Notes: generated from the letters alone by a model not told the origin. Shown: positions 1-60,194, numbered from the whole stretch's first letter. The stretch: 63,059 nt of DNA, filler included, from Stramenopiles sp. TOSAG23-3 (GCA_900128585.1; 10 parts of 10 records of this genome joined end to end with filler, not necessarily neighbours in it), one strand, 5' to 3'. Program-made: numbers and translations.

Positions 1-503
1 CCAATGGACTATGCCACCGAAGCAGCCAACATCGCGCCCCTTACCCGGTACCCCCACACCCTGGCCCGACTCCCGGCCCTGGACAGCTCAGACTCGGCCA
101 CTAACACAGAACCGCAATCCAGCAGTGAGTAATCCAGCAGTGAGCAACTCAGCATTGCCTCGACCCTAATAGTGCTATCCTCGGATGAAGACACAGGAAC
201 CAGAGCGTTGCCAGCAGGACGAGATCCCAACGGGCACGCCGACGAACCACAACTACCGCATCGCTGATCGAAAATGACACAAACGACCCTCCCCCGACAT
301 CTCAACCCACGGATGACAATCCCTTGACTGATTTAAAAGACTGACAACGAGCACCTCTAAAACAACTAAGCCGCTGCTTGGAAAATCGTACAAGGATTGA
401 GTCACCTATGAGTGAGATATCGGATGAGGCCTTTAACGGACAAAAGGAATTAAATTGTTCATTGGAATATATATCTCCTCAGTATTGACAACCAACAAAC
501 AAC

Positions 504-6319: not shown

Positions 6320-6816
6320 ATGCAAGCGTCTTTACACCTCCTTCTGCTGCTCGCCTTTGCTTCTATCGCTAATAGTCGCATCCCAGAGTTTATTGGAGAT
6401 AGTCAAAACGATAAAACTTCGCTGATAAGAAAAATTAATGACCAAAAGGTTAAGTCTTCGAGGCGAACTGGTGTTGCAAATTTGGGAGGCGGCTATTCGA
6501 CGGCTAAAACCAAGCAAGCAAGAACTGAAAGATTGCCTGATTACTTTGGTGGCGACGAACAATTTTTGAACAGTACCTCGATTCAACAAGAACAGCAAAC
6601 CAAGGAAATTGGCGTCGCAAGAAATGAATATGCGAGTAGCATTCGTATCCCCAACGCAAAACCTTCGCGGTTTTTAGAAAACCGCGGTGAACATAGAGGA
6701 GACTTGAAAATGCGAGAAGCGTTACTAAACCTGCGCTCAAAGAAGGATCGACGGCCGTTTCCGTTCGGGGGGCAAGGTTACCAGTATACACCAAGTCAAT
6801 ATAAACATCCCCCCCC
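6320..6816 (+). CDS. Secreted hypothetical protein, 3'-truncated by contig end
   Basis: ATG followed by a signal peptide (MQASLHLLLLLAFASIANS); frame open to the spacer. Confidence 0.7.
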
Positions 6817-6916
6817 NNNNNNNNNNNNNNNNNNNNNNNNNNNNNNNNNNNNNNNNNNNNTTAATTAATTAANNNNNNNNNNNNNNNNNNNNNNNNNNNN
6901 NNNNNNNNNNNNNNNN
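6817..6916. other. Artificial contig spacer
   Basis: 44 N + TTAATTAATTAA (stops in all frames) + 44 N. Confidence 0.99.
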
Positions 6917-9163
6917 ACAAGCGAGGTTTTTTGGGTGCTGGTGCATAAACAACAGGCTTTATTGGTTTTTGTTTCACAATCTTGGGGTGCTTTATACCAA
7001 GTTTTTTTGTCAGCGGGCTTTTCAAGCAATGCCGATCATGTGCCGGCCCAGGCGATCATATCTCTATGGAGTTCAGACACGGGCACAGACGAGGACAAGC
7101 GTGCAGTTTTGCTAGATAGTTACGCTCAGGCTACAACCCCTGCAGTTCTGGACATAGTCAATGTGTCTGTAGCTATCCGGCCCGATCTGATAAATTCCCT
7201 GCTAGTTGATGCAGTCACCACGCTCCCGCATGCGTCAGTGGGAATAACGAAAGCAGTTGCGCTGAAAATAAATAAAACCGACGCCAGCGCAGTGTTACAG
7301 AACGTTGTAAACGCCGTCAAAGATTTGGCACCGTTCTCTTCCTTGTATACGCCTGCTGCCATTCTTATCACTGCTTTTCAAGAAAATCCTGATTTGAAGA
7401 AAGGCATGTACGAAATCGTAAAGACGTGGGCGATATATGAGTCAAGTGCAGTGGTGGAGTCCAGTTCAGGAGAGGCGGTAACTATACCTGGTGCTTCATT
7501 GAGCGTTTCTCCATATAGCACAACAAATAACTCGGTGATCTCGTTAGCAAAATTCGACTGTAAATTTTTGAGCAGAAGTGTAAGGACGGGGGAATGCTTT
7601 GCGGTAACGATAGAGAAGTTGGAGAAGCCAGCAGTCCTCATTTTTGATGCCGCCGTAGATACGACTATGTGCATGAAGAGCGCAGACATGTTGAGTGACA
7701 ACTTTGTGGGCGTGCCGTGCATTATCGCTGGTGGCAAAGCCCAATACTCAGGAACTTCTTTTTCAGTTTTCACAACATACAGGCCGAGCGGCGCCCACAC
7801 CCACGATACGGAAAGATTTCATGCGGGGAAACCTGTCACAATTTCCCGAGACCAAGTTTCCTACAATGTTATTCAAGAAGGGCGACCGGTTGGAAATAGA
7901 GCGGTAGGGAAATTCCCCGACTCTTCCGTCAGCATTAGTAAAATTGAAGCAGAAATTTTAGGGTTTGATGTGTTTCATCCCAATCAAATCATTTACTCCA
8001 ATGGGCATGCGCTATACAAGTCAAGCACGGAGCTGGAAGCCGCCTCCCCAGTGGTGTCTGGAATAGCCAACTTCACGATCGAAGGTGCCAATTTTGGTGT
8101 GCAGAAGGAGGATTTACTGGCAGTGCGCGTTCGGGGCGTTCGATGCCCAACCCTTAATTACATCAGCCCCGTTTTGATAACATGCATATCAGGCGAGGTG
8201 GAGCATGTGAATGGCGCCGTTCCGTTCAAAAAAAGAGAAGTAGTCGTTACGACTACCTCGGGAAACTCGACCCTCGACGATGGCATACGGAACATCAATG
8301 TCCGCTTAAGTGAAGGGTACAGTCTACCTTTTGTTACTGGTGTTGCCCGGGGCTTAAAGACGTTCCGGCCCCATGCTGTTCTTGCCGATACGAACCATGA
8401 ATATTTTTACTGGAGTGACACCAGTGAGCAAACCGTTCGTCGTTCAAATTTCAAGGGTGCTGACATTGAATTGGTCTCCTCTGGAAATCTTACACGGAGA
8501 GTGCTGGGAATGGCCCTGGATATTCCGGCAAAAAAACAAATGTATGCCACTGATGCTAACGAAGGGACGGTAGTTATTATTCCTACGGAAGACATGGCGT
8601 TGCCTATCAAAATATTACTACGTGGGCTACGCGATCCACGTGGCATCGCACTTGATACGGGGGCGCGCGAGCTGTATTTTACAGAACTCACGGGGAAAAT
8701 CTATCGTGCATCGATGGACGGTCTTAATATCGAGACGAACCCCAACATGCCTGTCAAAATGAAGCAGATGCTCGTCCGGCGACCATCAAAGGTGCGCCTT
8801 GATGGAATATCACTTGATCTTTCTGGGCCTCGACGATATCGAAAAATATATTGGGCAGAAGCAAATTCAAACAATATCATGCGTAGCAGCTTAGACGGCC
8901 AAAAAGTTGAGGTAATTGCCGGTCTTGATTCAGGTTTAATGTTTCCCCAAGGTATCGGATTTGACACCGCAGCAAAGCAAGTATATTTCAGCGAGTACTT
9001 TGGAAAGATTTACAGGCTGTCTTCAACAGACATAGAAATTGGGAATGAACCTTCCCGCACAAAGGTTATAGATGCGTCGCGCGGTGCGGCAAGTACCGTA
9101 CGGGAAGAAATGTTGGCACTGACCAAAGTAGGAGGGCAATTTTTTTTCTCTGTCAAAGATTAA
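6917..9163 (+). CDS. IPT/TIG-domain plus YWTD (LDL-receptor class B-like) beta-propeller protein, 5'-truncated
   Basis: Frame open from the contig edge. TIG-like FTIEGANFG...VRCPTLNYISPVLITC; propeller repeats YFYWSD, MYATD, LYFTE, IYWAE, VYFSE with PRGIALD/PQGIGFD. Confidence 0.8.
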   Translation, partial: TSEVFWVLVHKQQALLVFVSQSWGALYQVFLSAGFSSNADHVPAQAIISLWSSDTGTDEDKRAVLLDSYAQATTPAVLDIVNVSVAIRPDLINSLLVDAVTTLPHASVGITKAVALKINKTDASAVLQNVVNAVKDLAPFSSLYTPAAILITAFQENPDLKKGMYEIVKTWAIYESSAVVESSSGEAVTIPGASLSVSPYSTTNNSVISLAKFDCKFLSRSVRTGECFAVTIEKLEKPAVLIFDAAVDTTMCMKSADMLSDNFVGVPCIIAGGKAQYSGTSFSVFTTYRPSGAHTHDTERFHAGKPVTISRDQVSYNVIQEGRPVGNRAVGKFPDSSVSISKIEAEILGFDVFHPNQIIYSNGHALYKSSTELEAASPVVSGIANFTIEGANFGVQKEDLLAVRVRGVRCPTLNYISPVLITCISGEVEHVNGAVPFKKREVVVTTTSGNSTLDDGIRNINVRLSEGYSLPFVTGVARGLKTFRPHAVLADTNHEYFYWSDTSEQTVRRSNFKGADIELVSSGNLTRRVLGMALDIPAKKQMYATDANEGTVVIIPTEDMALPIKILLRGLRDPRGIALDTGARELYFTELTGKIYRASMDGLNIETNPNMPVKMKQMLVRRPSKVRLDGISLDLSGPRRYRKIYWAEANSNNIMRSSLDGQKVEVIAGLDSGLMFPQGIGFDTAAKQVYFSEYFGKIYRLSSTDIEIGNEPSRTKVIDASRGAASTVREEMLALTKVGGQFFFSVKD

Positions 9164-27638: not shown

Positions 27639-28145
27639 ATGAAACACACATACGAAGCACTACGATACTGGCTCAACTTTGTGGTTAAGCATGGGAAAGA
27701 GTACATGAACGGACCCGCCACCTCCTTCTATTGTACCGAGCTTATCTTTGTGTTCACCAACATTGGGTTGCGCCATAAATGGTTCCAATTGTTCGATGGC
27801 TTTGACGAAATCACGGAGCTCCCCGAAGATCCCAGCGACTTGGGGAAGCTCGCCCTTTGCTTTGATGTCAAACGGATTACAGACGACTGGCAGATAATTC
27901 AAGTCAAGCTCAACGATATCATGTTCGCCCACTTTGACATGGTACACCTTAACCCACTCACGGATCAAGAGGCGCACGAGGCCCTCATGGCTGCTGATCC
28001 CATGTACGTCAGTGATTTGGACGCCTACTTTGAAGTTGACAACGAGTTTGCCTTTGACCCTAACGAATCCTTGAGCTTGACCCCGGAAAATAATATTTAT
28101 AGGCACGATCCACTGCCAATCTCAACGCACGATGTCGTCGTCTAA
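27639..28145 (+). CDS. Hypothetical acidic protein (168 aa)
   Basis: ATG in ACAACAATG context; coding-like codon bias; no recognised motif. Confidence 0.75.
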   Translation: MKHTYEALRYWLNFVVKHGKEYMNGPATSFYCTELIFVFTNIGLRHKWFQLFDGFDEITELPEDPSDLGKLALCFDVKRITDDWQIIQVKLNDIMFAHFDMVHLNPLTDQEAHEALMAADPMYVSDLDAYFEVDNEFAFDPNESLSLTPENNIYRHDPLPISTHDVVV

Positions 28146-28256
28146 GCATAGTACATTNNNNNNNNNNNNNNNTAAATGTTTAATGCTATCTTGTAGTCTG
28201 ACTAGTCATATATTATTATGTACCTTAAAATTATTATGAAGTTTCTAAGTAATGTC

Positions 28257-29069
28257 TTATACCTCAACCGACTCAAGGAGCTCCCTGAGGGTTTGCCCGT
28301 GATTGTTTCGAATTTGTTCCGCTGCTCTGCTCTTGTTGTATCTTTTCCATACTTCAGGCTTCCTCGTCCTTCTAAACGTGTGGTAGTTGGAGATAAAGCA
28401 GCCAATTTTGGTGGCCGATCCAAACTTGAAGTGTTCTCCGTGCCTTGTTTTGAGCTCGTTCATGAGCATGGCGTCGTAGGCGGGCGTCCCAATAGGCCGT
28501 TTTCGATAGGTTTTCACCGCGAAGCCCGTGACTTGAATGAACCCGTCCTCTGTCGGCTTAACGAAGTACCGCTTGTTCTGTAGCTGAAAGTGCCACTCGT
28601 CGTCTGTCTTGACTCTTCCGTTTTGAACAGCAGCCACCATCTTCTCATGGGACTTCTTCTTGTTCTCTTTGGCCGGTGATCTAGACTTCAATCCGTGCCA
28701 TTGTCCCTCCTTCATCGGATGGGTGCGCTCCCTTACGCCGCCGTACTTCGCTAGTCGTATGACAGCAGTAGCAGTACCAGAGTCCGTGCGGTGGGCGTCG
28801 CGGTTGCACTCTTGGCACACACGAACAAGGCGCCCGAATTTGCGTCTCCTCCGCTTGCATACAACACACTTAATCGTAGTTGATTTTTGCTTCGGCTTGT
28901 CCTTCTCTATCATCTGTGTCAGCTTCTGGGCAGCCTTCAACCTCAGAAAAGGATGGTAGGGGCGGTACCCCTCAGGTAATGTGTAGTCCTTCCCATTGGC
29001 CCGCCCTCCATTGAGAACTTTGGGTTTGAGGAACTTTGCTGCCTTTGTACAGACCGTGTAGGGTGCCAT
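28257..29069 (-). CDS. Basic hypothetical protein with CxxC-x13-CxxC zinc ribbon (270 aa)
   Basis: CVVCKRRRRKFGRLVRVCQEC; start context CTATAAAAAATG. Confidence 0.8.
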   Translation of the reverse strand: MAPYTVCTKAAKFLKPKVLNGGRANGKDYTLPEGYRPYHPFLRLKAAQKLTQMIEKDKPKQKSTTIKCVVCKRRRRKFGRLVRVCQECNRDAHRTDSGTATAVIRLAKYGGVRERTHPMKEGQWHGLKSRSPAKENKKKSHEKMVAAVQNGRVKTDDEWHFQLQNKRYFVKPTEDGFIQVTGFAVKTYRKRPIGTPAYDAMLMNELKTRHGEHFKFGSATKIGCFISNYHTFRRTRKPEVWKRYNKSRAAEQIRNNHGQTLRELLESVEV

Positions 29070-29306
29070 TTTTTATAGTTGTTTTTAACTTTATATTTGT
29101 AATGTTTGCGTGTATTTTTTATGTTTTAATTCTATCTGGTAATCTTTGGGACAAATGTCAACTTTCTATATTATAATCTCAAGTTTCTTTTTGTCCCCGA
29201 TCACAGCATTTGCTTTTCGGATGGATGATGTAGTGTAGTATGATAGAATAATAATAATTTGTGCGTGATATAAAAAAAATGAATCCATTAACCACTGGTT
29301 AAGAAA

Positions 29307-29949
29307 TTATGGTGAATTACTGTAGTACCCCATGTCGTCCTCGTTGTCGTCAAGTTCCTTAAAGGAGCCGAACTCGTCAGTCTTCCATTCTGTTAGTACG
29401 TAATCCTGTTCTTCGAGATATTCGTACTCGCCTTTAAGGAATTCGTTGTCGATGAAGCGGTGCATGTCGCGGATAAGGTTTCCGGGTATGATCTCAACTT
29501 CGCAGTACCCTGTGTGCTTGTCCAGTCCGGTGATTTCCTTTCCTTCCTTGTCAAAGAACTTGGCGTAAGGTTTGTCAGCCTGTACCTTCCCGAACCATAC
29601 CTTTCTGCCTTTCCTGCCATAACTCCTTTATATCACCCTTGAAAACGTTGGTATCAGTGTCGTCGTAGTGCTTCCACCTCCATAGGCTAAAGAAGAACTC
29701 GTACTCTTCCTGTAAGGGAGTGGCATTTGCTTTAAAGATGTCACCACTCTCTCGCTTCTCGTCGTTGATTTTCCGCCTCTTCTGGATCATCTCTTTATAT
29801 CTATTGATATTGAGTTGATCCACTGGGGACCTTGCTATGCCGTTGACATGATGAACGCTAGCTCGCGCGTACCACTTCTCGGTCTTTGTCATGGGGACTC
29901 TGACTGCTGGCTTCATCGGTGGAGTTCTTTGTTTGGTAGTGTGGACCAT
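29307..29949 (-). pseudogene. Hypothetical gene of about 213 aa interrupted by a 1-nt frameshift near 29602
   Basis: The ORF from 29949 stops at 29575. Removing one A from CAGAAAGGTA gives ...QERQKVWFGKVQADKPYAKFFDKEG...DDMGYYSNSP* to TAA at 29307, with the same codon style. Confidence 0.7.
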
Positions 29950-30056
29950 AGTTGATTTGTGTTTGTTGATTGCTTTCTTTTGATATAGTTTAGATACTGT
30001 TCGGTTTGGTTTACTTTTACTATGTTTTGTAATTAGTTTACTTTTTATATTTTCTT

Positions 30057-30120
30057 TTATGGTCTGTTGGTCTTATGGTCTGTTGGTCTTATGGTCTGTT
30101 GGTCTTATGGTCTGTTGGTC
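30057..30120. repeat. Perfect 16-bp tandem repeat x4 (TTATGGTCTGTTGGTC)
   Basis: Read directly from the sequence. Confidence 0.98.
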
Positions 30121-30170
30121 TGATAATGGGATGTACCAAATGGGATGTTGGGATTTTTTCCGATTGGAAT

Positions 30171-30322
30171 CCCATTGGGAATTGTGGCTATTATTCGACC
30201 TATTACCCAATGGAAATTGTGGCTATTATTCGATACCCAATGGGAATTGTGGCTCTATTATTCGATACCCAATGGGAATTGTGGCTATTATTCAACCCAT
30301 CCCAATGGGATCCCAATGGGAT
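30171..30322. repeat. About 30-bp repeats with palindromic core CCCA(A/T)TGGG
   Basis: CCCAATGGGAATTGTGGCTATTATTCGA-type units at 30171, 30206, 30236 and 30268; extra cores at 30301 and 30312. Confidence 0.95.
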
Positions 30323-30528
30323 TAATATTATTTTTTTTGTAATTATCAATAATCAGCTCCGAATCCCACTACCCCTACGCCCGTTACACACCGTGAATGG
30401 GATCTCAACCACCGGGATCGTACCTTCGTAAGATATAAAACTAAAATAACATTTAAACTAATGTAATTAAATTATCAAAAAGTTGTCAACTATATACAAA
30501 TTAAAACAAAAATCAACTCTGACTCGTC

Positions 30529-31521
30529 ATGCAGGTCTACCCTAACGCCCTTTGGGCTACCATTATCAAATCGCTGGTCGTTGTTATCGGCGCCCACGGC
30601 CATGAAAACCTCAAGCCACCTGAGGAGTGTGAAGCCGTCAATTGGGATCGTAGTCCTATGCACAACAAGGAGTACGTTGAGAATGCCGTGCTCATCGATC
30701 ATCGCCCTTTTGATCCAAAAATCAACGCTACCTTCGTCGTCTGGAACTCCGCTCTACCTCATTGCAATGGAACATGGAACGATAAGCTCTCTGGGAAGAA
30801 GCGAAAACGCGGCTTTTCCCCACAGCTGACTACAAAGGGCCATTTCGTCTCTGACATGGAAGCAGCATCGGAATACGCCCACGAGCATGGATTCTGTGTT
30901 GTTGAGCTCGATCTCTCTTTGGAAGAGTACAATCGCCTGATCACGCTTTATCGACAGTCCGTTCAGCTGGTAAACAAGGAGATTATCGATCCAGAATCAC
31001 CTACCTGTCCGGATATCAACAAGATAAACGCCGATCACCTGCCGCCATACAAGACTAAAGGTCTCCAACAATTTTATGGCTTCTGTCACACTCCATTCGC
31101 TAACGCCTGTCGCGAAATAGCAGCTATTAAGCGCCTGTTCAGCATACTGTACGACTGCCCCCAACATGCTATGTACTGCTCGCTCGACGCGTCTGCTGTG
31201 GCAATGGCTACTGGTTCAAATGACAATTGGCTTCATAGAGATCAGACAAAAGCTAAGGTAAATCACGACTGTTGGCAGGGCACACTCTACCTCAAGTCTC
31301 CAACAAAGAAGTACAGAAGACTGGCGCAAATGGTAGCACACCATCCTACTACCCACGGTCTTGCCAATCGAGAAGATCTGGAGAACTACGCAAAGGCTAA
31401 TGGCGCCTGCTTAACACACAATAATCACCGCGTGAACAAGGAAGCGGAAGGCTTAACTGGTCATCTCGCAATGAGAAAAGAACAGTATGGAAAGAGGTAT
31501 AAAACTCATACTACTAAGTAA
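30529..31521 (+). CDS. PhyH-like Fe(II)/2-oxoglutarate dioxygenase with rearranged motif order
   Basis: HGFCVV, GLQQFYGFCH, SLD, WLHRDQ, CWQGTLYL, RLAQMV..HP; the blocks LVVVIGAH and FVVWNSALPHCN sit at the N-terminus. Confidence 0.8.
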   Translation: MQVYPNALWATIIKSLVVVIGAHGHENLKPPEECEAVNWDRSPMHNKEYVENAVLIDHRPFDPKINATFVVWNSALPHCNGTWNDKLSGKKRKRGFSPQLTTKGHFVSDMEAASEYAHEHGFCVVELDLSLEEYNRLITLYRQSVQLVNKEIIDPESPTCPDINKINADHLPPYKTKGLQQFYGFCHTPFANACREIAAIKRLFSILYDCPQHAMYCSLDASAVAMATGSNDNWLHRDQTKAKVNHDCWQGTLYLKSPTKKYRRLAQMVAHHPTTHGLANREDLENYAKANGACLTHNNHRVNKEAEGLTGHLAMRKEQYGKRYKTHTTK

Positions 31522-31539
31522 TTCTTTACATTATTTTAA

Positions 31540-31905
31540 TTACATACTACAGTATACACAATCGCATTCACCGTACGATATCATTCCCGGAGTTGTGTAT
31601 GGCACTATCTCGCTTCCGTCCATTGGGAATGTTGCCCTGTTCTTGTACAGAGGATCGCAACAGTTCTTGTAATCCCAGCTCAAGTAGTAGTCGTCGAAGT
31701 TGATTTGGAGATGGGAAACGTACTTCTTCGCCGGTCGGCCATTCATGATGACCCTCAGGTCCTTCCCGTTCCAGTAGCCCTGTAATTCCATCGTCGTTTG
31801 TAAGCGCATTTTACAGGTTGGCTCCGGTCGTAACACCTCGTCGCGAACCCATAGGCCCTTGAGGATTAATGGAGTAAACTCTTCTACGTCTGATCGTAAC
31901 TGCAT
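31540..31905 (-). CDS. Hypothetical protein (121 aa)
   Basis: AAAATCACAATG start; Cys-rich C-terminus (CC...CxCxxC); ends 18 nt from the convergent gene. Confidence 0.7.
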   Translation of the reverse strand: MQLRSDVEEFTPLILKGLWVRDEVLRPEPTCKMRLQTTMELQGYWNGKDLRVIMNGRPAKKYVSHLQINFDDYYLSWDYKNCCDPLYKNRATFPMDGSEIVPYTTPGMISYGECDCVYCSM

Positions 31906-32076
31906 TGTGATTTTATGTTATATTACGCAATGTTTATGGGTTTTCTAGTTAAATGTTAACGATTTCTTTCTGTTCCTATAATTTATGTAATTTCGGTAGG
32001 TTGGTAAGTCGGTAAGTCGGTTGTAGAAGGTTGTAGGTTGTAGAAGGTTGTAGGTTGTAGAAAAAAAGTAAAATAT

Positions 32077-32526
32077 TTAGCAGTCATTTTGAAGACACCC
32101 ACCACAATTTCTTCCAGCGCACAGCACAGTCTTAGTGTACATGTAGGGCGACATGGGATAATTGTGGCCAGAAGAAAACCACGCCTTATTGTTATCAATT
32201 TCGACATCCACATTGCAAAGTTTCGTATGTTTCGGCGCCCTGATTTTCAAAGTAACTTCGTACTCGTCTTCTTCGTCTCGTTTGCGTTTTTTCAATGGAG
32301 AATAGGCCAAGTTCGGTGATTCTTCGATGAACATAGGCTGTGTTGTGCTAGTCCCACAGTTCTTCTTCCAGCCGAGTCTAGAGCCCATATACTCGTTGTA
32401 ATCGGGATGAAGTTCTGCTAAAGCAAGAGCCATCGGGTGCGGCTCAGTAAATCGTTCCCAATCCCGTACTTCAGCTTCTTGGATCGCGCTGTCAACGAGA
32501 TAATCTACGAGACAACTGATAAACAT
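32077..32526 (-). CDS. Hypothetical protein with NLS-like PLKKRKR and C-terminal Cys cluster (149 aa)
   Basis: AAACAACTATG start; CAGRNCGGCLQNDC terminus. Confidence 0.75.
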   Translation of the reverse strand: MFISCLVDYLVDSAIQEAEVRDWERFTEPHPMALALAELHPDYNEYMGSRLGWKKNCGTSTTQPMFIEESPNLAYSPLKKRKRDEEDEYEVTLKIRAPKHTKLCNVDVEIDNNKAWFSSGHNYPMSPYMYTKTVLCAGRNCGGCLQNDC

Positions 32527-33042
32527 AGTTGTTTTTGGTTAGTAAATGGAGTTTTGTTAGTTTGTTTGTTGGTTTGTTAGTTTGTTTGTTTAATGTATTC
32601 ATTCTTATTTCTTTTTCGCAAATGGAATTCCCAATTGTACTAAAACTCGTGCGAGTAATGTAAGTGTCAACCACTACCCAATGCGATTCTAATTATTTAT
32701 TGATTCAAAAAAAATAAGATTTCTTGTTTCGATGCTGTCTCTATGTTAATTCAAATAATGATTAAAAAAATGGCCCATACGGCTGCTATTCCTATGTTAT
32801 TTTCGACCAAAAATCATTAATTTATTTCTATGCTGTCTTCATGTTAATGAAAATCCCAACTAATCCCATCTGGTACCACAATTTTTTTTCTTCATCCTCC
32901 CTCCAAAATTTTTTTGTCTTCACGAACGCAAAAGGTTCTGGTCCTCCCGGGAAATTGGAAACATGGAAAGTAAATAAGTATAAAATAATATAAAAGCAAA
33001 TGAAACACAAATAAAAATAGCAAATACTAATACAAAATCACA

Positions 33043-33504
33043 ATGGAATCTCAACAATGCGGTATTTGTTTTGAGGATTTGGGGCCCGCTAAGCGAAAAG
33101 CCACCACTGACGTATGCGATCATCCATATTGTGTGGGCTGCTTGGAAACATGGGCGTTAAAAAACGATACATGCCCGACGTGTCGCCGTACGTTTACTGA
33201 AGTCAAGACACACGGCAAAAGGAAGCGCGAAATCACCGTTAGAAAGTTGAGGACGGATATGGTGAAGGCGAAGAAACGAACGAGAAAACGAGTACTAAGA
33301 CGCTTCAAACGCCAATTTCAAAAGGGCTACGCTTACCGTTTCAAACGATCGGTGACAATCGCTGGTGTGCCTTTACAAGAATGGGGATTGATACCACGTT
33401 CTGAAGCTACTGAGAACGATATTGCCGACATGGACAAAGCAAAAAGTTTGAAATGCTGTCTGGACGATAGAGGGGGGAGGTTCACACCCATTGTACTTGA
33501 ATAA
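33043..33504 (+). CDS. RING-finger (C3HC4) protein, putative E3 ubiquitin ligase
   Basis: CGIC...CDHPYCVGC..W...CPTCR; basic C-terminal region. Confidence 0.9.
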   Translation: MESQQCGICFEDLGPAKRKATTDVCDHPYCVGCLETWALKNDTCPTCRRTFTEVKTHGKRKREITVRKLRTDMVKAKKRTRKRVLRRFKRQFQKGYAYRFKRSVTIAGVPLQEWGLIPRSEATENDIADMDKAKSLKCCLDDRGGRFTPIVLE

Positions 33505-33522
33505 CTTTATAATATACTTTAT

Positions 33523-34101
33523 TTATTCATTATTTATCCATCTACACCCATTCCATACACGATTGTAGAGGATATTATCGCTTTTACTCATGTTCTCGGT
33601 ACCCCATAATGGCTGGAGGTTGGTGTAATGAAAACATCGCCTTTGCTGTTCGGGATCGCTCAAGTCAAAGGAAGCACAGGGCATCATGTGATCGATGTGC
33701 CATGTTCCTTGGTTCTCCCATGTCATTCCGGGTTGGAACTGCTTTTCCATATGATCCATTAAGTGTGATATGGAACAGCCCACTAACTTCATGGTTCGAG
33801 CGCTCTTGTTCTTGCCTTTGAGTGCTCTATGTAATTGTCTTCGTAAAAGCTTTTTAAGTCTGTACTGTGGATCAGAATCGTAACGTTCCTTAGCGCGTGC
33901 ATTTTTTCGTTTCTTGTATTCCGGGCGCTTGTTGCTCTTCCTTTCCGATGCACGAGCTTTCTCCGGGTTGTTTTGTTTCCACTTCTTGGTAGATGCCTTC
34001 ACACACACTTTGCATCGGTATGCAAGCCCATCGGGTGATTTGGATCGCTTGTTAAACTCCGTGAGCGCTTTGGTTTGGTTGCATCCGGTACAGGTCTTCA
34101 T
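33523..34101 (-). CDS. HNH/endonuclease VII-like putative homing endonuclease of the kind common in NCLDVs and phages
   Basis: N-terminal KTCTGCNQTK..EF......DG....CKVC; LVGCS, FQPGMTWEN, WHIDH..PCASFDL, CFHYTNLQPLW..EN.SK. Confidence 0.85.
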   Translation of the reverse strand: MKTCTGCNQTKALTEFNKRSKSPDGLAYRCKVCVKASTKKWKQNNPEKARASERKSNKRPEYKKRKNARAKERYDSDPQYRLKKLLRRQLHRALKGKNKSARTMKLVGCSISHLMDHMEKQFQPGMTWENQGTWHIDHMMPCASFDLSDPEQQRRCFHYTNLQPLWGTENMSKSDNILYNRVWNGCRWINNE

Positions 34102-37736: not shown

Positions 37737-38303
37737 AGGGAGAGTGACAAAGGGGAAAGGAAGTGGGAGCATGCGCCTAAACTTGTGAATTAATTTGTAT
37801 ATAAAAAAAAAACATTTAAAAACTCATATGAGATTCATTTAAAACAAAACCAAAACAATTATTCTACATTTGTGCGTTTTAAACATTTATTTCCAGAAGA
37901 AGAAATAATAAAATACACCAACAATCATCATTTCATATTATTTATTTTTTGTAGTCGTCGTCTATTTTGAGTAGTAGTACCGGTCGACTATNNNNNNNNN
38001 NNNNNNTATATTTTAATAATAATATTTTAATAAAAAATATCAACAAACAACGAACAACACACAACAGGATTTTTTCTTAATTAAAAAAATAATTAATCCT
38101 CTCCACCTCCACCACCCCACTGAAATTTTACTTATAATAATTTGAATATTTTATTTTTTGTTGATATAAAAAAATGCAAACAAAGCGCTTATTCCGATAA
38201 ATTTCGCTTCTGTAACTTTTACTATGACGATTGTCTAAACGTTTCTACGCTTGGTAAATGCAACGAACGTTCCTTTTCTGAGGGGTAGTTAGAGAGAAAG
38301 AGA

Positions 38304-39614
38304 ATGTCGTCGATGCCGGCTTCCGTTTCCGTGGGTAAAGCGAGCGTCGCGGTGATTGGGTTGATGTCGGGGACTTCGCTGGACGCTGTGGACGCGTCTC
38401 TGGTTTACGTAGAACAGTACGGGGAGCTGCTGCTCGGGGCGGGTGAGTCCATAGAGGTAAAGATACCCAGTGAGTTACGCGGAAAGTGTTTAGCATTGTC
38501 AAAAACGTGCGCGGCAGACGTTGACTTTGCCCGGTCCTGCGCCGCAGTCTCCGTCGACCCTCGGAAAAGTTTCCGCAACAAAGACATTGCTGGACTAGAA
38601 TTAGAAATTACTGAAATACACGCTCGGGCTGTGGCCAAACTGTTGAACAAGATATCATCACCTTCGCCAACAGGAGATGCCCGCGCGCGCCCTCCGGTCA
38701 GCCTCGTGGGCTTCCACGGCCAAACGATATACCACCACCCTCACGGTCCCCCAAGTGAGCGCTTCACGTGGCAACTCGGCGACGGAAAACTCTTGGCCAA
38801 ACTGACAAACATGAAGGTTGTGTCGCAGTTCCGCTTCCAGGACGTTGGTCGGGGTGGCGAAGGGGCTCCACTGGCTCCTCTGTATCACGTTGCGCGCATG
38901 CGCTTGTCGTTAGCCGCCAACCACGTGCCCGCTGGGGTCGTAAGTGCAGGCGGTGCGACCGGGACTTCGATTGCCATTTTGAACATTGGTGGTGTCAGCA
39001 ACGTAACGTTCCTGAGGGTCGACAGCGCTTCAAACCAAAGCGCCCCGTTAGCCTTTGACTGTGGGCCGGGGAATGCATTGATCGACGACTTTATGCACCG
39101 TAAAACTGGTACTCCAACGGATCAAGATGGTGTATGCGCTGCCGCTGGCAATCCCCGAGAGGACATCATCAACGAGGCTGTGCTGAACTATGCCGCATAC
39201 TTGTCGCGCAAACCACCAAAGAGCTTGGATCGGAACACGTTTTCCGAGGGCATCTTCTCTAGCGAACTTTTTTTTAATCGGCTTTCGATAAACGACGGGG
39301 CAGCAACACTCGCGCGCTTCACTGCAGTCTGTATTGCCATGTCAGTCTCCCTGGTAGGCGAAGATCATGCCCCAAAAGTGTGGTACGTCTGCGGGGGAGG
39401 CCGCCACAACCCTACCCTGATGAAACACATCATGGAAGAGGTCTGCGTCCCCGTTTTTCCCGTAGAGGCCCTTGAGTGGAACGGCGACAGCCTGGAGGCG
39501 GAGTGTTTTGGATACTTGGCTGCACGGGTCGTTGCTGGGAAGCACACTTCGCTTCCAACGACGACCGGGTGTTCGGAGCCCGTATGTGGAGGGTTGGTGG
39601 ATATGCCAGTTTAG
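38304..39614 (+). CDS. anmK: Anhydro-N-acetylmuramic acid kinase (AnmK/levoglucosan kinase family)
   Basis: IGLMSGTSLD, GFHGQT, GGEGAPLAP, LNIGGVSN, AFDCGPGNALID, PPKSLDRN, CGGGRHN, EAECFGYLA, PTTTG. Confidence 0.92.
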   Translation: MSSMPASVSVGKASVAVIGLMSGTSLDAVDASLVYVEQYGELLLGAGESIEVKIPSELRGKCLALSKTCAADVDFARSCAAVSVDPRKSFRNKDIAGLELEITEIHARAVAKLLNKISSPSPTGDARARPPVSLVGFHGQTIYHHPHGPPSERFTWQLGDGKLLAKLTNMKVVSQFRFQDVGRGGEGAPLAPLYHVARMRLSLAANHVPAGVVSAGGATGTSIAILNIGGVSNVTFLRVDSASNQSAPLAFDCGPGNALIDDFMHRKTGTPTDQDGVCAAAGNPREDIINEAVLNYAAYLSRKPPKSLDRNTFSEGIFSSELFFNRLSINDGAATLARFTAVCIAMSVSLVGEDHAPKVWYVCGGGRHNPTLMKHIMEEVCVPVFPVEALEWNGDSLEAECFGYLAARVVAGKHTSLPTTTGCSEPVCGGLVDMPV

Positions 39615-39946: not shown

Positions 39947-41146
39947 TTAACCTTGCACGATCTTGCACTCTATGTGCAGGCCGCCTATTGGTGTAAACTC
40001 TGGGATGAAAATTCTGCGGACTTGGCCCAACTGAATGTTTGGATCACCGTCAATGTCGTAAACATCTGCCACTCTGTCGGGCTGGTCTACCATTGGAACC
40101 TCTATGCGGAACCCCCGCCTTGCGTTCAAAATGGGTACGTCCACGTTGTACACCAAGCTGTTGAAGTCTTCCCGATGCAGCAAAAAGTGGGGGTGATCCG
40201 ATACTCCAAATTCAAAAATGAAATCTCCGGGGCGCTTGTTCAACGCCGCGTCCCCGTCTCCCGCCCGCTTCATTCTCCGAGAGTTCGATCCTGGGGGGAT
40301 TGTAAACGCCAAGTGCTGGTCTTCGTGGACGACCCCGCTACCATGGCAGTGTCGGCAAACATGTCCCGAATGTCCAGTGCCACCACACTTGGGGCATCTT
40401 CCGTGGAACGTCACGCACGGTATCCCGTGGTGGCAGCCCCACGTTTGCTGAACGCTTCCGTGCCCACCACACCGATCGCAAATATGGGGTGAATCGTGCC
40501 CCTCCGGTGCCCCAGTGCCAGAGCACACCGGACATGTGGACGCTTTCCGCCGTTTGTGGTTTATTCTTATCGGCTTTCCCGAAAAATAGGCCGCCATGTC
40601 TACGTTCATTTGAAGAACAGTGTCCTCGTTCCGGGGCTTGTCCTTCAACATTTTGTAGGCGGCGCTTATTTCCAAGAACTTTTCTTCGGCCTCCTCCTCC
40701 GAAAGTTGGCACACCTCGTCTTCCCTGGTCGGGGAAGCCCGGCGCTGGAGCCGGCTCATTCGCCGCTCTGCGGACGATATCAACTTGGGCACAATGGACT
40801 CCTTTACGTTGTATTTATGTACAAAATCCATTGCCGCGGATTCGATTTGCTGCCCTTCAAAAACAGTGAAGTTTTTTGTGCCCTTTGTGCCCAGCTTTAC
40901 TTCAAACGATAAGACCGACTTCTTCCTTTGACCGTCCTTTGCCCGCTTCCGCTTCAACGCCTTGACCTTATCCGGGTGATACAGCAACGCCAGCTTTCGG
41001 TAAGCCGATTTTATTTCTTTCTCAGTCGCGTCAGAAGATAGCCCCAGCACGTCGTAAGGAATCGCACCCCCGTTAGCGTTTAATACTGCCGCAAATAGAC
41101 AGAAGAGGAGGACGAAGAAATGGCGCGTTATTCTGCATACCGCCAT
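39947..41146 (-). CDS. Secretory-pathway type I DnaJ chaperone (Scj1/ERdj-like) with an insertion in the J-domain
   Basis: Signal peptide from ATG 41146; YDVLGL...[16 protein letters not shown]; four CxxCxGxG repeats; C-terminal PGD..F....HP.F motif. Confidence 0.9.
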
Positions 41147-59122: not shown

Positions 59123-60194
59123 AAAAATATGTTTTTTTATATATATTGATGAAATCATCAACTTTAAAAAGAATACGAATTTCGTGCGCTTCATTTTACC
59201 CTTTTATTACACAATGCACATAGATAGGATAATTTCATCATACTATACGAGGTATCCGTAGTGTGTGTTTTGACCGACTAGACGTGTAATAGAACCAAAA
59301 AGAAAAGCTCTTCTTCAATATATTCCAAATATTAATATAGTAGAGAGATCGAGATTTTCTTCTTCTTCTTCTTNNNNNNNNNNAAGGCACAAGCTATTAC
59401 ATGTACATTATAATACAAAGTAACAGCTGAAGAAAGAACACGATGCATGCCAACGTTCATTTATTCTTAAGAAAAAGGGAAATTAAACCCTAATTATATC
59501 ACTAATAATCACCCAGGCAAGAAATCCACCATCATTTATTTCAGTATAATAATATATATACTTAAATACTTAATAAGTATAAGAAGAAATAAAATCGTCG
59601 TTCTTCCCAGTGGTGTACATTAAATAGATTCTATTCCCTATCTAAATTAATACTGTTGTGTTCTTGTTGGTTTATTATTTATTTTATTATACTTCATCAT
59701 TACTTTTTTTGTATTCTTCTTCTTCTATTTATTTATTATTTAACAAAAAAAAAAAACAAAACGTTTTTTTTTTCTTCTTCTTCTTCTTCTTCTTCTTCTT
59801 CTTCTTCTTCTTCTTCTTCTTCTTCTTTCTTCTTCTCTCTTTTTTCTTCTTTTTATTTTAATATTATAATACCATCCAGGATAGTAGTACCTACAGTAGT
59901 ATGTATTTCTTTTTTTTCTTTTTTTTTTCTAATTATTTAAATTATTCTACTACTTACCATTACTACTACAACAACCGGAACCAGGTACCGGTACTCGACC
60001 GTACTTCTTCTCACAAGAAGAAGAAGCGCATATGCATCTGAAGATGCTACTGTAAACGTTTAAACAATATTGTGGAAACGTGGGAAGACAATTTTGTTAA
60101 TACTCAAACAAATTTAGACTCAAATATTTCCCCTCTTTCTCCCAAGAGAAAATCGGTATATTTAGTATTTTTTGTAAAGATTTCGTACGGACAG

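Follow-up and report, generated by a model that had tools for sequence, protein, structure and literature searches.

The window analysed here is a stretch of 63,059 nucleotides, filler included, from Stramenopiles sp. TOSAG23-3 (GCA_900128585.1), in which parts of ten records of this genome are joined end to end. On its plus strand, positions 30529–31521 form an intronless coding sequence, a single uninterrupted frame from ATG to TAA, which encodes a protein of 330 amino acid residues (P0001) followed by the stop codon. A preliminary description of this DNA had read the gene as a PhyH-like Fe(II)/2OG dioxygenase whose core segments stand in a non-cyclically permuted order, and the clean ORF and all the motifs quoted in it were located by script at the residues and bases assigned to them. 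The segments are called here blocks A, B and C after their order in canonical relatives, and their limits in P0001 are given with the motifs in Table 1.

Table 1. Motifs, candidate ligands and sequence blocks of P0001, with residue numbers and window positions
Feature	Residues	Window positions	Strand	Remarks
Block B (HMM match)	9–94	30553–30810	+	DSBH strands IV–VII, N-terminal here
SLVVVIGAH	15–23	30571–30597	+	PGSH-type motif, block B
FVVWNSALPHCN	69–80	30733–30768	+	block B, holds His78
His78	78	30760–30762	+	putative distal iron ligand from alignment, strand VII
KKRKR	90–94	30796–30810	+	C-terminal edge of block B, start of B-to-A linker
Block A	96–257	30814–31299	+	N-terminal helical PhyH part and strands I, II (HxD) and III
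HGFCVV	120–125		+	block A
WLHRDQ	234–239		+	His236 at 31234, Asp238 at 31240
HxD iron ligands, His236-Arg237-Asp238	236–238	31234–31242	+	match invariant H132/D134 of canonical alignment
III–VIII hairpin (CWQGTLYL-KSPTKKYR-RLAQMV)		31270–31335	+	DSSP strands 249–255 and 264–269
CWQGTLYL	248–255		+	strand III
KSPTKKYR	256–263		+	8-residue turn between strands III and VIII
RLAQMV	264–269		+	strand VIII
Block C	259–306	31303–31446	+	strand VIII, helix, G-x-x-x-T-H motif
Arg264	264	31318–31320	+	strand VIII, block C
His297	297	31417–31419	+	in conserved G-x-x-x-T-H motif, block C

The surroundings of the gene are those of a cellular genome. Pfam searches on 32 ORFs of the window identified teneurin-type EGF repeats, LDL-receptor/TIG, importin-beta/Cse1, RING finger, DUF2828/vWA and AnmK domains, and in addition DnaJ (the J-domain match spans only profile positions 2–37 of 63), PTPS, ThiJ-like, metallophosphoesterase, PQQ propeller, FAM184-like coiled coil and Ank/EF-hand proteins, with no virus hallmark gene among the 32. 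Around the gene the GC content is uniform, and no paralogue of P0001 was detected within the window by tblastn. Moreover, the gene order is preserved in related marine contigs; next to the homologue of 68% identity in L007, the RING gene is the only neighbour that persists. The locus belongs to a gene-rich part of the nuclear genome of a marine protist, and its eukaryotic context, in which operon logic does not apply, offers no functional clue from the neighbours. The proposal that the gene lies on a virus-like element found no support, since its neighbours in the window are eukaryotic cellular genes, the locus is syntenic and the only viral relatives found have the canonical order.

Eleven relatives of P0001 came from a word-seeded search, and phmmer, run exhaustively over 1.84 billion representatives, returned 35 matches at E ≤ 0.001, 18 of which reach E ≤ 1e-10; a profile search added a few more. 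The family alignment holds 30 sequences with 21–74% identity to the query; the short fragments P0016, P0022, P0042 and P0012, the models P0010, P0011, P0023 and P0024, which look frameshifted or scrambled, the low-complexity proteins P0035, P0036 and P0044 and the proteins of canonical order were left out of it. Along the permuted family the succession of motifs is SLVVVPxSH...LWNSxxVHC, then helices, then NWLHxDQ and QGxxxL, and finally RxAQMV..P and G....TH. Annotation is absent throughout, and the sole named member is an 'uncharacterized protein' from the dinoflagellate Cladocopium goreaui. None of the 30 members reaches the cut-off of the Pfam family PhyH (PF05721), the best having E 0.071 and 13.8 bits against 22, and the whole P0001 protein matches no Pfam family at E ≤ 10, PF07350 (Gig2-like/DUF1479) included. 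It had been expected that the two parts of the protein, searched separately with HMMER, would hit the two halves of PhyH-like profiles; against Pfam neither gave a match at E ≤ 10. The family profile found among the PDB sequences only a chance-level match to a photolyase (E 0.79).

The connection to known enzymes runs through five relatives of canonical order, P0030, P0034, P0037, P0041 and P0043, which are the weakest of the phmmer hits and match only residues ~107–257 of the query. P0001 is linked directly to the first four of them by phmmer at E 1e-8 to 2e-4, and four of the five pass the PhyH gathering score (29 of the 35 phmmer hits were scanned). Read by eye, they run from helices, WLHxDQ and QG through VVPKSH...LWNSRTLHCN to R....a..P...G.STHW. 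A profile search with the canonical set gathered 47 proteins (P0034 and P0041 included, 45 new), most of them with PF05721 and several of them green algal; in single-sequence searches, canonical PhyH proteins match P0001 within block A only. Named canonical members come from Trebouxia, Symbiochloris and Elliptochloris, and the BFVD models labelled 'Phytanoyl-CoA dioxygenase' from Tupanvirus, Pithovirus and CeV-01B also belong here. The canonical PhyH-like proteins of giant viruses and algae have NWLHxDQ, QGxxxL, VVPxSH, LWNSRxxHC, the strand VIII Arg and G..(S/T)TH in common with the permuted family, whereas they show the order A-B-C and are detectable by PF05721, and the permuted family shows B-A-C and is invisible to Pfam. 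A scan of IMG/VR for viral permuted copies gave one locus, ORF 6613–7560 of the giant-virus MAG (GVMAG) L001, which is of canonical order, as are the only viral PhyH relatives found. In the ESM Atlas the nearest clusters (score 0.90) are PhyH proteins of Actinomycetota and Nucleocytoviricota together with one resolvase cluster, which we regard as a lead only.

For a comparison of the blocks at the profile level, the family alignment was cut into B (residues 1–95), A (96–257) and C (258–310), and each sub-profile was aligned by hhalign with an alignment of the five canonical-order relatives (P0030 numbering). Query residues 10–91 of block B fall on 172–248 of P0030 (probability 96.5%, E 9e-10), residues 100–257 of block A on 15–170 (99.8%, E 2.4e-30), and residues 260–308 of block C on 252–302 (77%, E 2e-5). 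Block C is the weakest link of homology, and at i-E ≤ 0.01 its HMM recognises only 11 of the 49 canonical proteins. When the canonical set was scanned with the block HMMs, B followed A in all 37 proteins with a B match (49 scanned, 12 without a B match at i-E ≤ 0.01) and C followed B in 11 of 11. The order B-A-C was found in 28 of the 30 permuted members, the other two being truncated, a count which is circular because the block HMMs were derived from that same set. As judged from these profile comparisons, the resemblance of the blocks is beyond chance and the three map to their canonical places in another order; P0001 is homologous to bona fide PhyH members, a relationship visible only at the profile-profile level through the canonical relatives. 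These alignments bear out the assignment of the protein to the PhyH branch of the Fe(II)/2OG dioxygenases and the claim that the block of strands IV–VII, with its distal His, precedes the HxD block. Since the passage from A-B-C to B-A-C is a transposition and not a rotation, the term non-cyclic was also right, provided that block C is homologous.

The residues expected at the metal site were followed through the 30 members of the family. H78 is kept in 27 of them, H236 in 29, and D238, R264 and H297 in 28 each, which bears out the earlier statement that the protein still has its full set of iron ligands and the Arg; one member, P0032, is without H78, D238 and R264. In the hhalign comparison H78 aligns with the His of canonical WNSRTLHCN, and this canonical distal His in turn aligns, at a weak level (whole-sequence E 3.6e-4, domain i-E 0.17), with the His of RTVHMA in SnoK (5epa_A), which we take to be a metal ligand. 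R264 opens the modelled strand 264–269 and aligns with an invariant canonical Arg. The predicted facial triad residues, HxD and the distal His, are present and conserved, H78 being assigned by alignment, and R264 is the putative basic residue of strand VIII that binds the C5 carboxylate of 2OG. The order of the ligands in P0001 is His78...His236-x-Asp238...Arg264, which departs from the order HxD...His...Arg of the canonical DSBH.

An AlphaFold2 model of P0001, built on the 30-sequence alignment only, forms one compact domain with a mean pLDDT of 89.7 and a pTM of 0.91. Block B contributes strands 12–19, 53–56, 67–73 and 78–84 (pLDDT 90–96), and residues 81–100 in the linker region drop to pLDDT 74–76. 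The 10-residue pLDDT blocks 251–260 and 261–270, which cover most of strands III (249–255) and VIII (264–269), average 96 and 95, in agreement with the short hairpin that had been proposed to join the two strands through an 8-residue turn. Against the PDB, Foldseek gave no match at E ≤ 0.001 for the P0001 model among 184 at E ≤ 10. The canonical protein P0041, modelled likewise as a control (pLDDT 90.9, pTM 0.89), gave at least 350 matches at E ≤ 0.001, the best at 2.4e-10, and given this control the lack of matches for P0001 can be attributed to chain order. Among viral models, the best matches of P0001 are partial ones (E 7e-5 to 1.6e-2, TM ~0.4) with the canonical PhyH proteins from Tupanvirus, Pithovirus and CeV.

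With VIA, an order-tolerant yet sequential structure search over 48,161 chains, the best targets of P0001 were GIG2/DUF1479 (6akz_A: Z 8.4, rmsd 4.7, 194 residues aligned) and YbiU (4rgk_A: Z 8.0, rmsd 4.8, 194 aligned), at a level of Z which, according to the tool, common arrangements can produce. P0041 had the same two best targets, with Z 20.9 (267 aligned) and Z 20.6 (271 aligned), respectively. From P0041 to P0001 the score falls by about 12 Z units and the alignment shortens by about 75 residues, in line with a sequential aligner being unable to place block B, and most of the VIA alignments span only model residues ~93–310, that is, A plus C. Among the 50 rows listed, 47 are Fe/2OG oxygenases or halogenases, as judged from their titles or from the protein named, and the exceptions are 8fnc_14, 3pl0_B and 3qh7_A. 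On these models, blocks A and C show an oxygenase fold, and the whole protein is predicted to be a double-stranded beta-helix, at a borderline Z that is backed by the P0041 control.

It could be supposed that the odd order stems from faulty assembly or gene modelling, for instance from a chimera of contigs or wrongly joined exons, and some database relatives are indeed plainly poor models (P0010 and P0011 seem to contain frameshifts, and P0024 has the order B-A-C-A). This explanation is effectively refuted by the gene itself, which is one uninterrupted ORF, and by several independent sequences. A marine metagenome contig (run X2) is collinear with the window over 30300–31685, with 25 substitutions, and thus covers the whole gene. 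RNA-library contigs cover 30631–31043 and 31060–31445 (X15) and 30458–31083 and 31290–31525 (X16, oligo-dT); they cross both block junctions with no joint reported, these being contigs from RNA libraries that may contain DNA. Furthermore, a search for metagenome loci with a closer alignment of 10 sequences found eight collinear loci in different assemblies, each as a single tblastn match, four of them with 97–100%, three with 68–72% and one with 35% identity, and the same order recurs in the homologues (28 of 30) down to 21% identity. The chimeric assembly that had been named as a danger was seen in none of the DNA contig, the RNA-library contigs and the eight loci, and the last also answer the call for homologues of the same order in marine metagenomes. 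The gene is under strong purifying selection: third codon positions account for 32 of the 36 variant sites listed within the CDS (nine further variant sites are outside this list), dN/dS is 0.03–0.075 against L002–L004, and in these three loci the dioxygenase is 97–100% identical, compared with 67–97% for the neighbouring ORFs (two neighbours have 99% in L002).

Three other readings accept the gene as real. The N-terminal block might be the decayed remnant of a duplication, with the real distal His lying C-terminally (His297 or His271/272) in the usual order HxD...H, and His297 is in fact located after HxD and conserved in 28 of 30 members. We consider this very improbable, because strand VIII comes just 8 residues after strand III, which leaves no strands IV–VII behind HxD; besides, the motif around H297 matches G..STHW of the canonical relatives, whose distal His sits in block B, and conservation in block B equals that of the rest of the protein (W72, S74 and H78 at 90% or more) and modelled at pLDDT 90–96. 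A fold that is rewired and catalytically dead, kept as a pseudoenzyme for binding or scaffolding, is slightly less improbable and still quite unlikely. In its favour, P0032 has lost H78, D238 and R264, but the triad and the Arg are kept in 27–29 of the 30 members across 21–74% identity, and the low dN/dS given above speaks against loss of function as well. The most plausible of the three, and nonetheless unlikely, is that block B docks in trans, so that the IV–VII block completes the barrel of a partner chain in an obligate domain-swapped dimer or oligomer. The linker between B and A is flexible and variable, as its pLDDT, the ~70 additional residues of P0018 and a deletion variant of 6 letters indicate, and such tethers permit swapping; on the other side, the monomer model is compact, as its pTM attests, and a linker of 20 residues is long enough for docking in cis.

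Against these alternatives, the ORF probably encodes a functional Fe(II)/2OG dioxygenase of the PhyH/Gig2-like branch whose DSBH is built from segments in non-canonical order. We infer the geometry of the triad, enzymatic activity, a class of substrate and the docking of B in cis rather than in trans. In this working model, block B, carried on the flexible basic linker, would fold back and take its place between strands III and VIII, where His78 from B would complete the facial triad with His236 and Asp238 from A, and Arg264 from C would hold the C5 carboxylate of 2OG; the predicted enzyme would then hydroxylate or otherwise oxidise a substrate. The linker comprises about residues 85–100 and is a basic stretch of some 20 residues, rich in K/R in the close homologues and not in the distant (dinoflagellate-like) branch. 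Its length varies: one RNA-library contig leaves out the 6 letters at 30789–30795, and by its block coordinates and sequence the B-to-A spacer of P0018 is ~70 residues longer than that of the query. The motif KKRKR resembles an NLS, as had been remarked, and a role in nuclear localisation is possible.

The origin of the rearrangement was examined in a tree of block A (78 rows, 167 columns, unrooted, with the truncated P0029 left out), in which the 29 permuted proteins group together with the canonical P0034, P0043, P0037 and P0030 (SH-aLRT 95). Holding the 29 permuted rows together by a constraint gave a slightly better tree (lnL +0.73, p-AU 0.52), and a single origin of the permutation is therefore compatible with the data, rather than proven by them. 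Intermediates of the order B-A-B-C or B-C-A-B-C were found in none of 117 proteins; P0024, with B-A-C-A, was considered as an intermediate and set aside, as it looks like a bad gene model. We assume that the rearrangement might have arisen once, in the canonical PhyH-like gene lineage common to marine eukaryotes and giant viruses, and that the rearranged form would then have been inherited vertically in marine protists, a dinoflagellate included. A possible route is that block B was first duplicated to the N-terminus, giving B-A-B-C with the domain intact, and that the internal copy was lost afterwards. Taken as a whole, the reading of a non-circular permutation of single origin, in which a four-strand block with one ligand moved to the N-terminus of a protein predicted to be active and kept in several marine protist lineages, is in our judgement likely, a little less so than the assignment of the enzyme itself.

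Among proteins of known structure, GIG2 of Candida albicans (6akz) and YbiU of Yersinia pestis (4rgk), both of DUF1479, are the best structural matches of both the P0001 and the P0041 models. They differ from P0001 in having the canonical strand order, with 10–15% identity, and P0001 is without a PF07350 match. The literature search on GIG2 and YbiU returned only genome-scale or annotation papers and brought up neither substrates nor a transferable function. Human PHYH (2a1x) and PHYHD1 (3obz) share the superfamily fold and, by homology, presumably the same set of iron and 2OG ligands; their VIA scores are Z 5.2 and 4.6 for P0001 against Z 15.7 and 14.6 for P0041. In PHYH, HxD comes before the distal His, whereas in P0001 it comes after it, and the analysis gave no sign of an acyl-CoA substrate for P0001.

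The fold of the Fe(II)/2OG oxygenases is one of the most closely studied in enzymology, and no member is known to us whose metal ligands stand in an order other than HxD...H. Whether the order B-A-C had already been described was a point raised at the outset; in the full-text literature searched, with most subscription journals outside its scope, no description of this order, or of any permuted DSBH or 2OG oxygenase, was found. Non-circular permutations have been reported for other folds, for example for the HK97-like capsid of phage BPP-1 (PMC3863775) and in a survey (PMC2096629). The blocks there are likewise reported to keep their places in three dimensions while the chain order changes in a non-rotational way, but the folds are others and no catalytic metal site is involved.

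The B-A-C family is real and conserved and represents a new topology for a known kind of enzyme, and the rearrangement, which is rare, hides the family from standard annotation. Despite a confident model, P0001 has no Foldseek match in the PDB where its canonical sister has at least 350, and none of the 30 members reaches the Pfam cut-off, so that order-dependent tools miss the family; it follows that other rewired enzymes are probably to be found among 'hypothetical proteins'. That a family with its distal His in front has been conserved shows that the jelly-roll can accommodate a chain order altered by more than rotation, and it leads one to ask by what steps rearrangements of this kind evolve. 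If the reading is true, marine protists hold an enzyme family invisible to Pfam, which would be a natural experiment on the limits of changing the folding order of the DSBH, and P0001, being small, soluble-looking and intronless, would be a convenient protein for folding and design studies.

The dioxygenase protein is 97–100% identical between the window and the closely related contigs L002–L005, while most of the neighbouring ORFs compared with the same contigs (window 27639–34101) show 67–97% identity. The dioxygenase gene is by far the most constrained gene of its neighbourhood. The RING-finger gene downstream of it has a counterpart in a more distant metagenome locus, L007, which likewise lies downstream, on the same strand, of a dioxygenase homologue with 68% identity, and the two RING-finger proteins are 39% identical to each other. 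The dioxygenase-RING gene order is a case of conserved synteny over a deep split. The intergenic region upstream of the dioxygenase gene bears two kinds of repeats, and this region (30057–30310) is conserved in part in L002.

Features in the neighbourhood of the dioxygenase gene and elsewhere in the window
Feature	Position in window	Strand	Details
168-aa ORF	27639–28145		67–68% identity in L003–L005, 99% in L002
Neighbouring ORF	29575–29949		67–87% identity vs related contigs
Perfect 16-mer repeat	30057–30121		4.1 copies; intergenic, upstream of dioxygenase gene
Repeat of ~31-base unit	30171–30293		~4 copies; intergenic, upstream of dioxygenase gene
RING-finger gene	33043–33504		downstream of dioxygenase gene; counterpart L007 6493–6945
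Neighbouring ORF	33523–34101		~70–75% identity vs related contigs
AnmK homologue	38304–39614		full-length; E 6e-65
DnaJ ORF	39947–41146	(-)	only positions 2–37 of 63-position J-domain profile matched

Relative to the window, the contig X16 from an oligo-dT RNA library lacks six letters at 30789–30795 (one at 30789 and five at 30791). The gap falls where block B (strands IV–VII with the distal His) ends, just before the codons for KKRKR. Since the net gap is a multiple of three, it is consistent with a loop at this place that tolerates length change. Two database homologues with 73–75% identity, P0013 (721 aa) and P0045 (774 aa), have an additional N-terminal region of about 400–450 residues, for which no Pfam match and no counterpart within the window were found; it may be due to a fusion or to the merging of gene models. 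In a third homologue, P0024 (534 aa), a piece with strand I and HxD follows block C (the strand VIII Arg), giving the order B-A-C-A. A mis-ordered exon model is the probable explanation, though this could be another rearrangement.

Runs of 44 N's occur in pairs with a period of about 6.88 kb between 6817 and 61973 (6817/6873, 13714/13770, ... 61874/61930), which looks like regular masking or scaffolding rather than biology. Three further short runs are located at 28158–28172, 37992–38006 and 59374–59383. The window contains 832 N's in total, and the dioxygenase gene (30529–31521) is free of all these runs.

As for the other genes, the restricted profile match of the DnaJ ORF hints that its J domain is interrupted, either by an intron or by a break in the reading frame. 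AnmK (anhydro-N-acetylmuramic acid kinase) is a bacterial-type enzyme of peptidoglycan recycling, found here in a protist genome with otherwise eukaryote-like surroundings, and its presence may reflect an old gene transfer.
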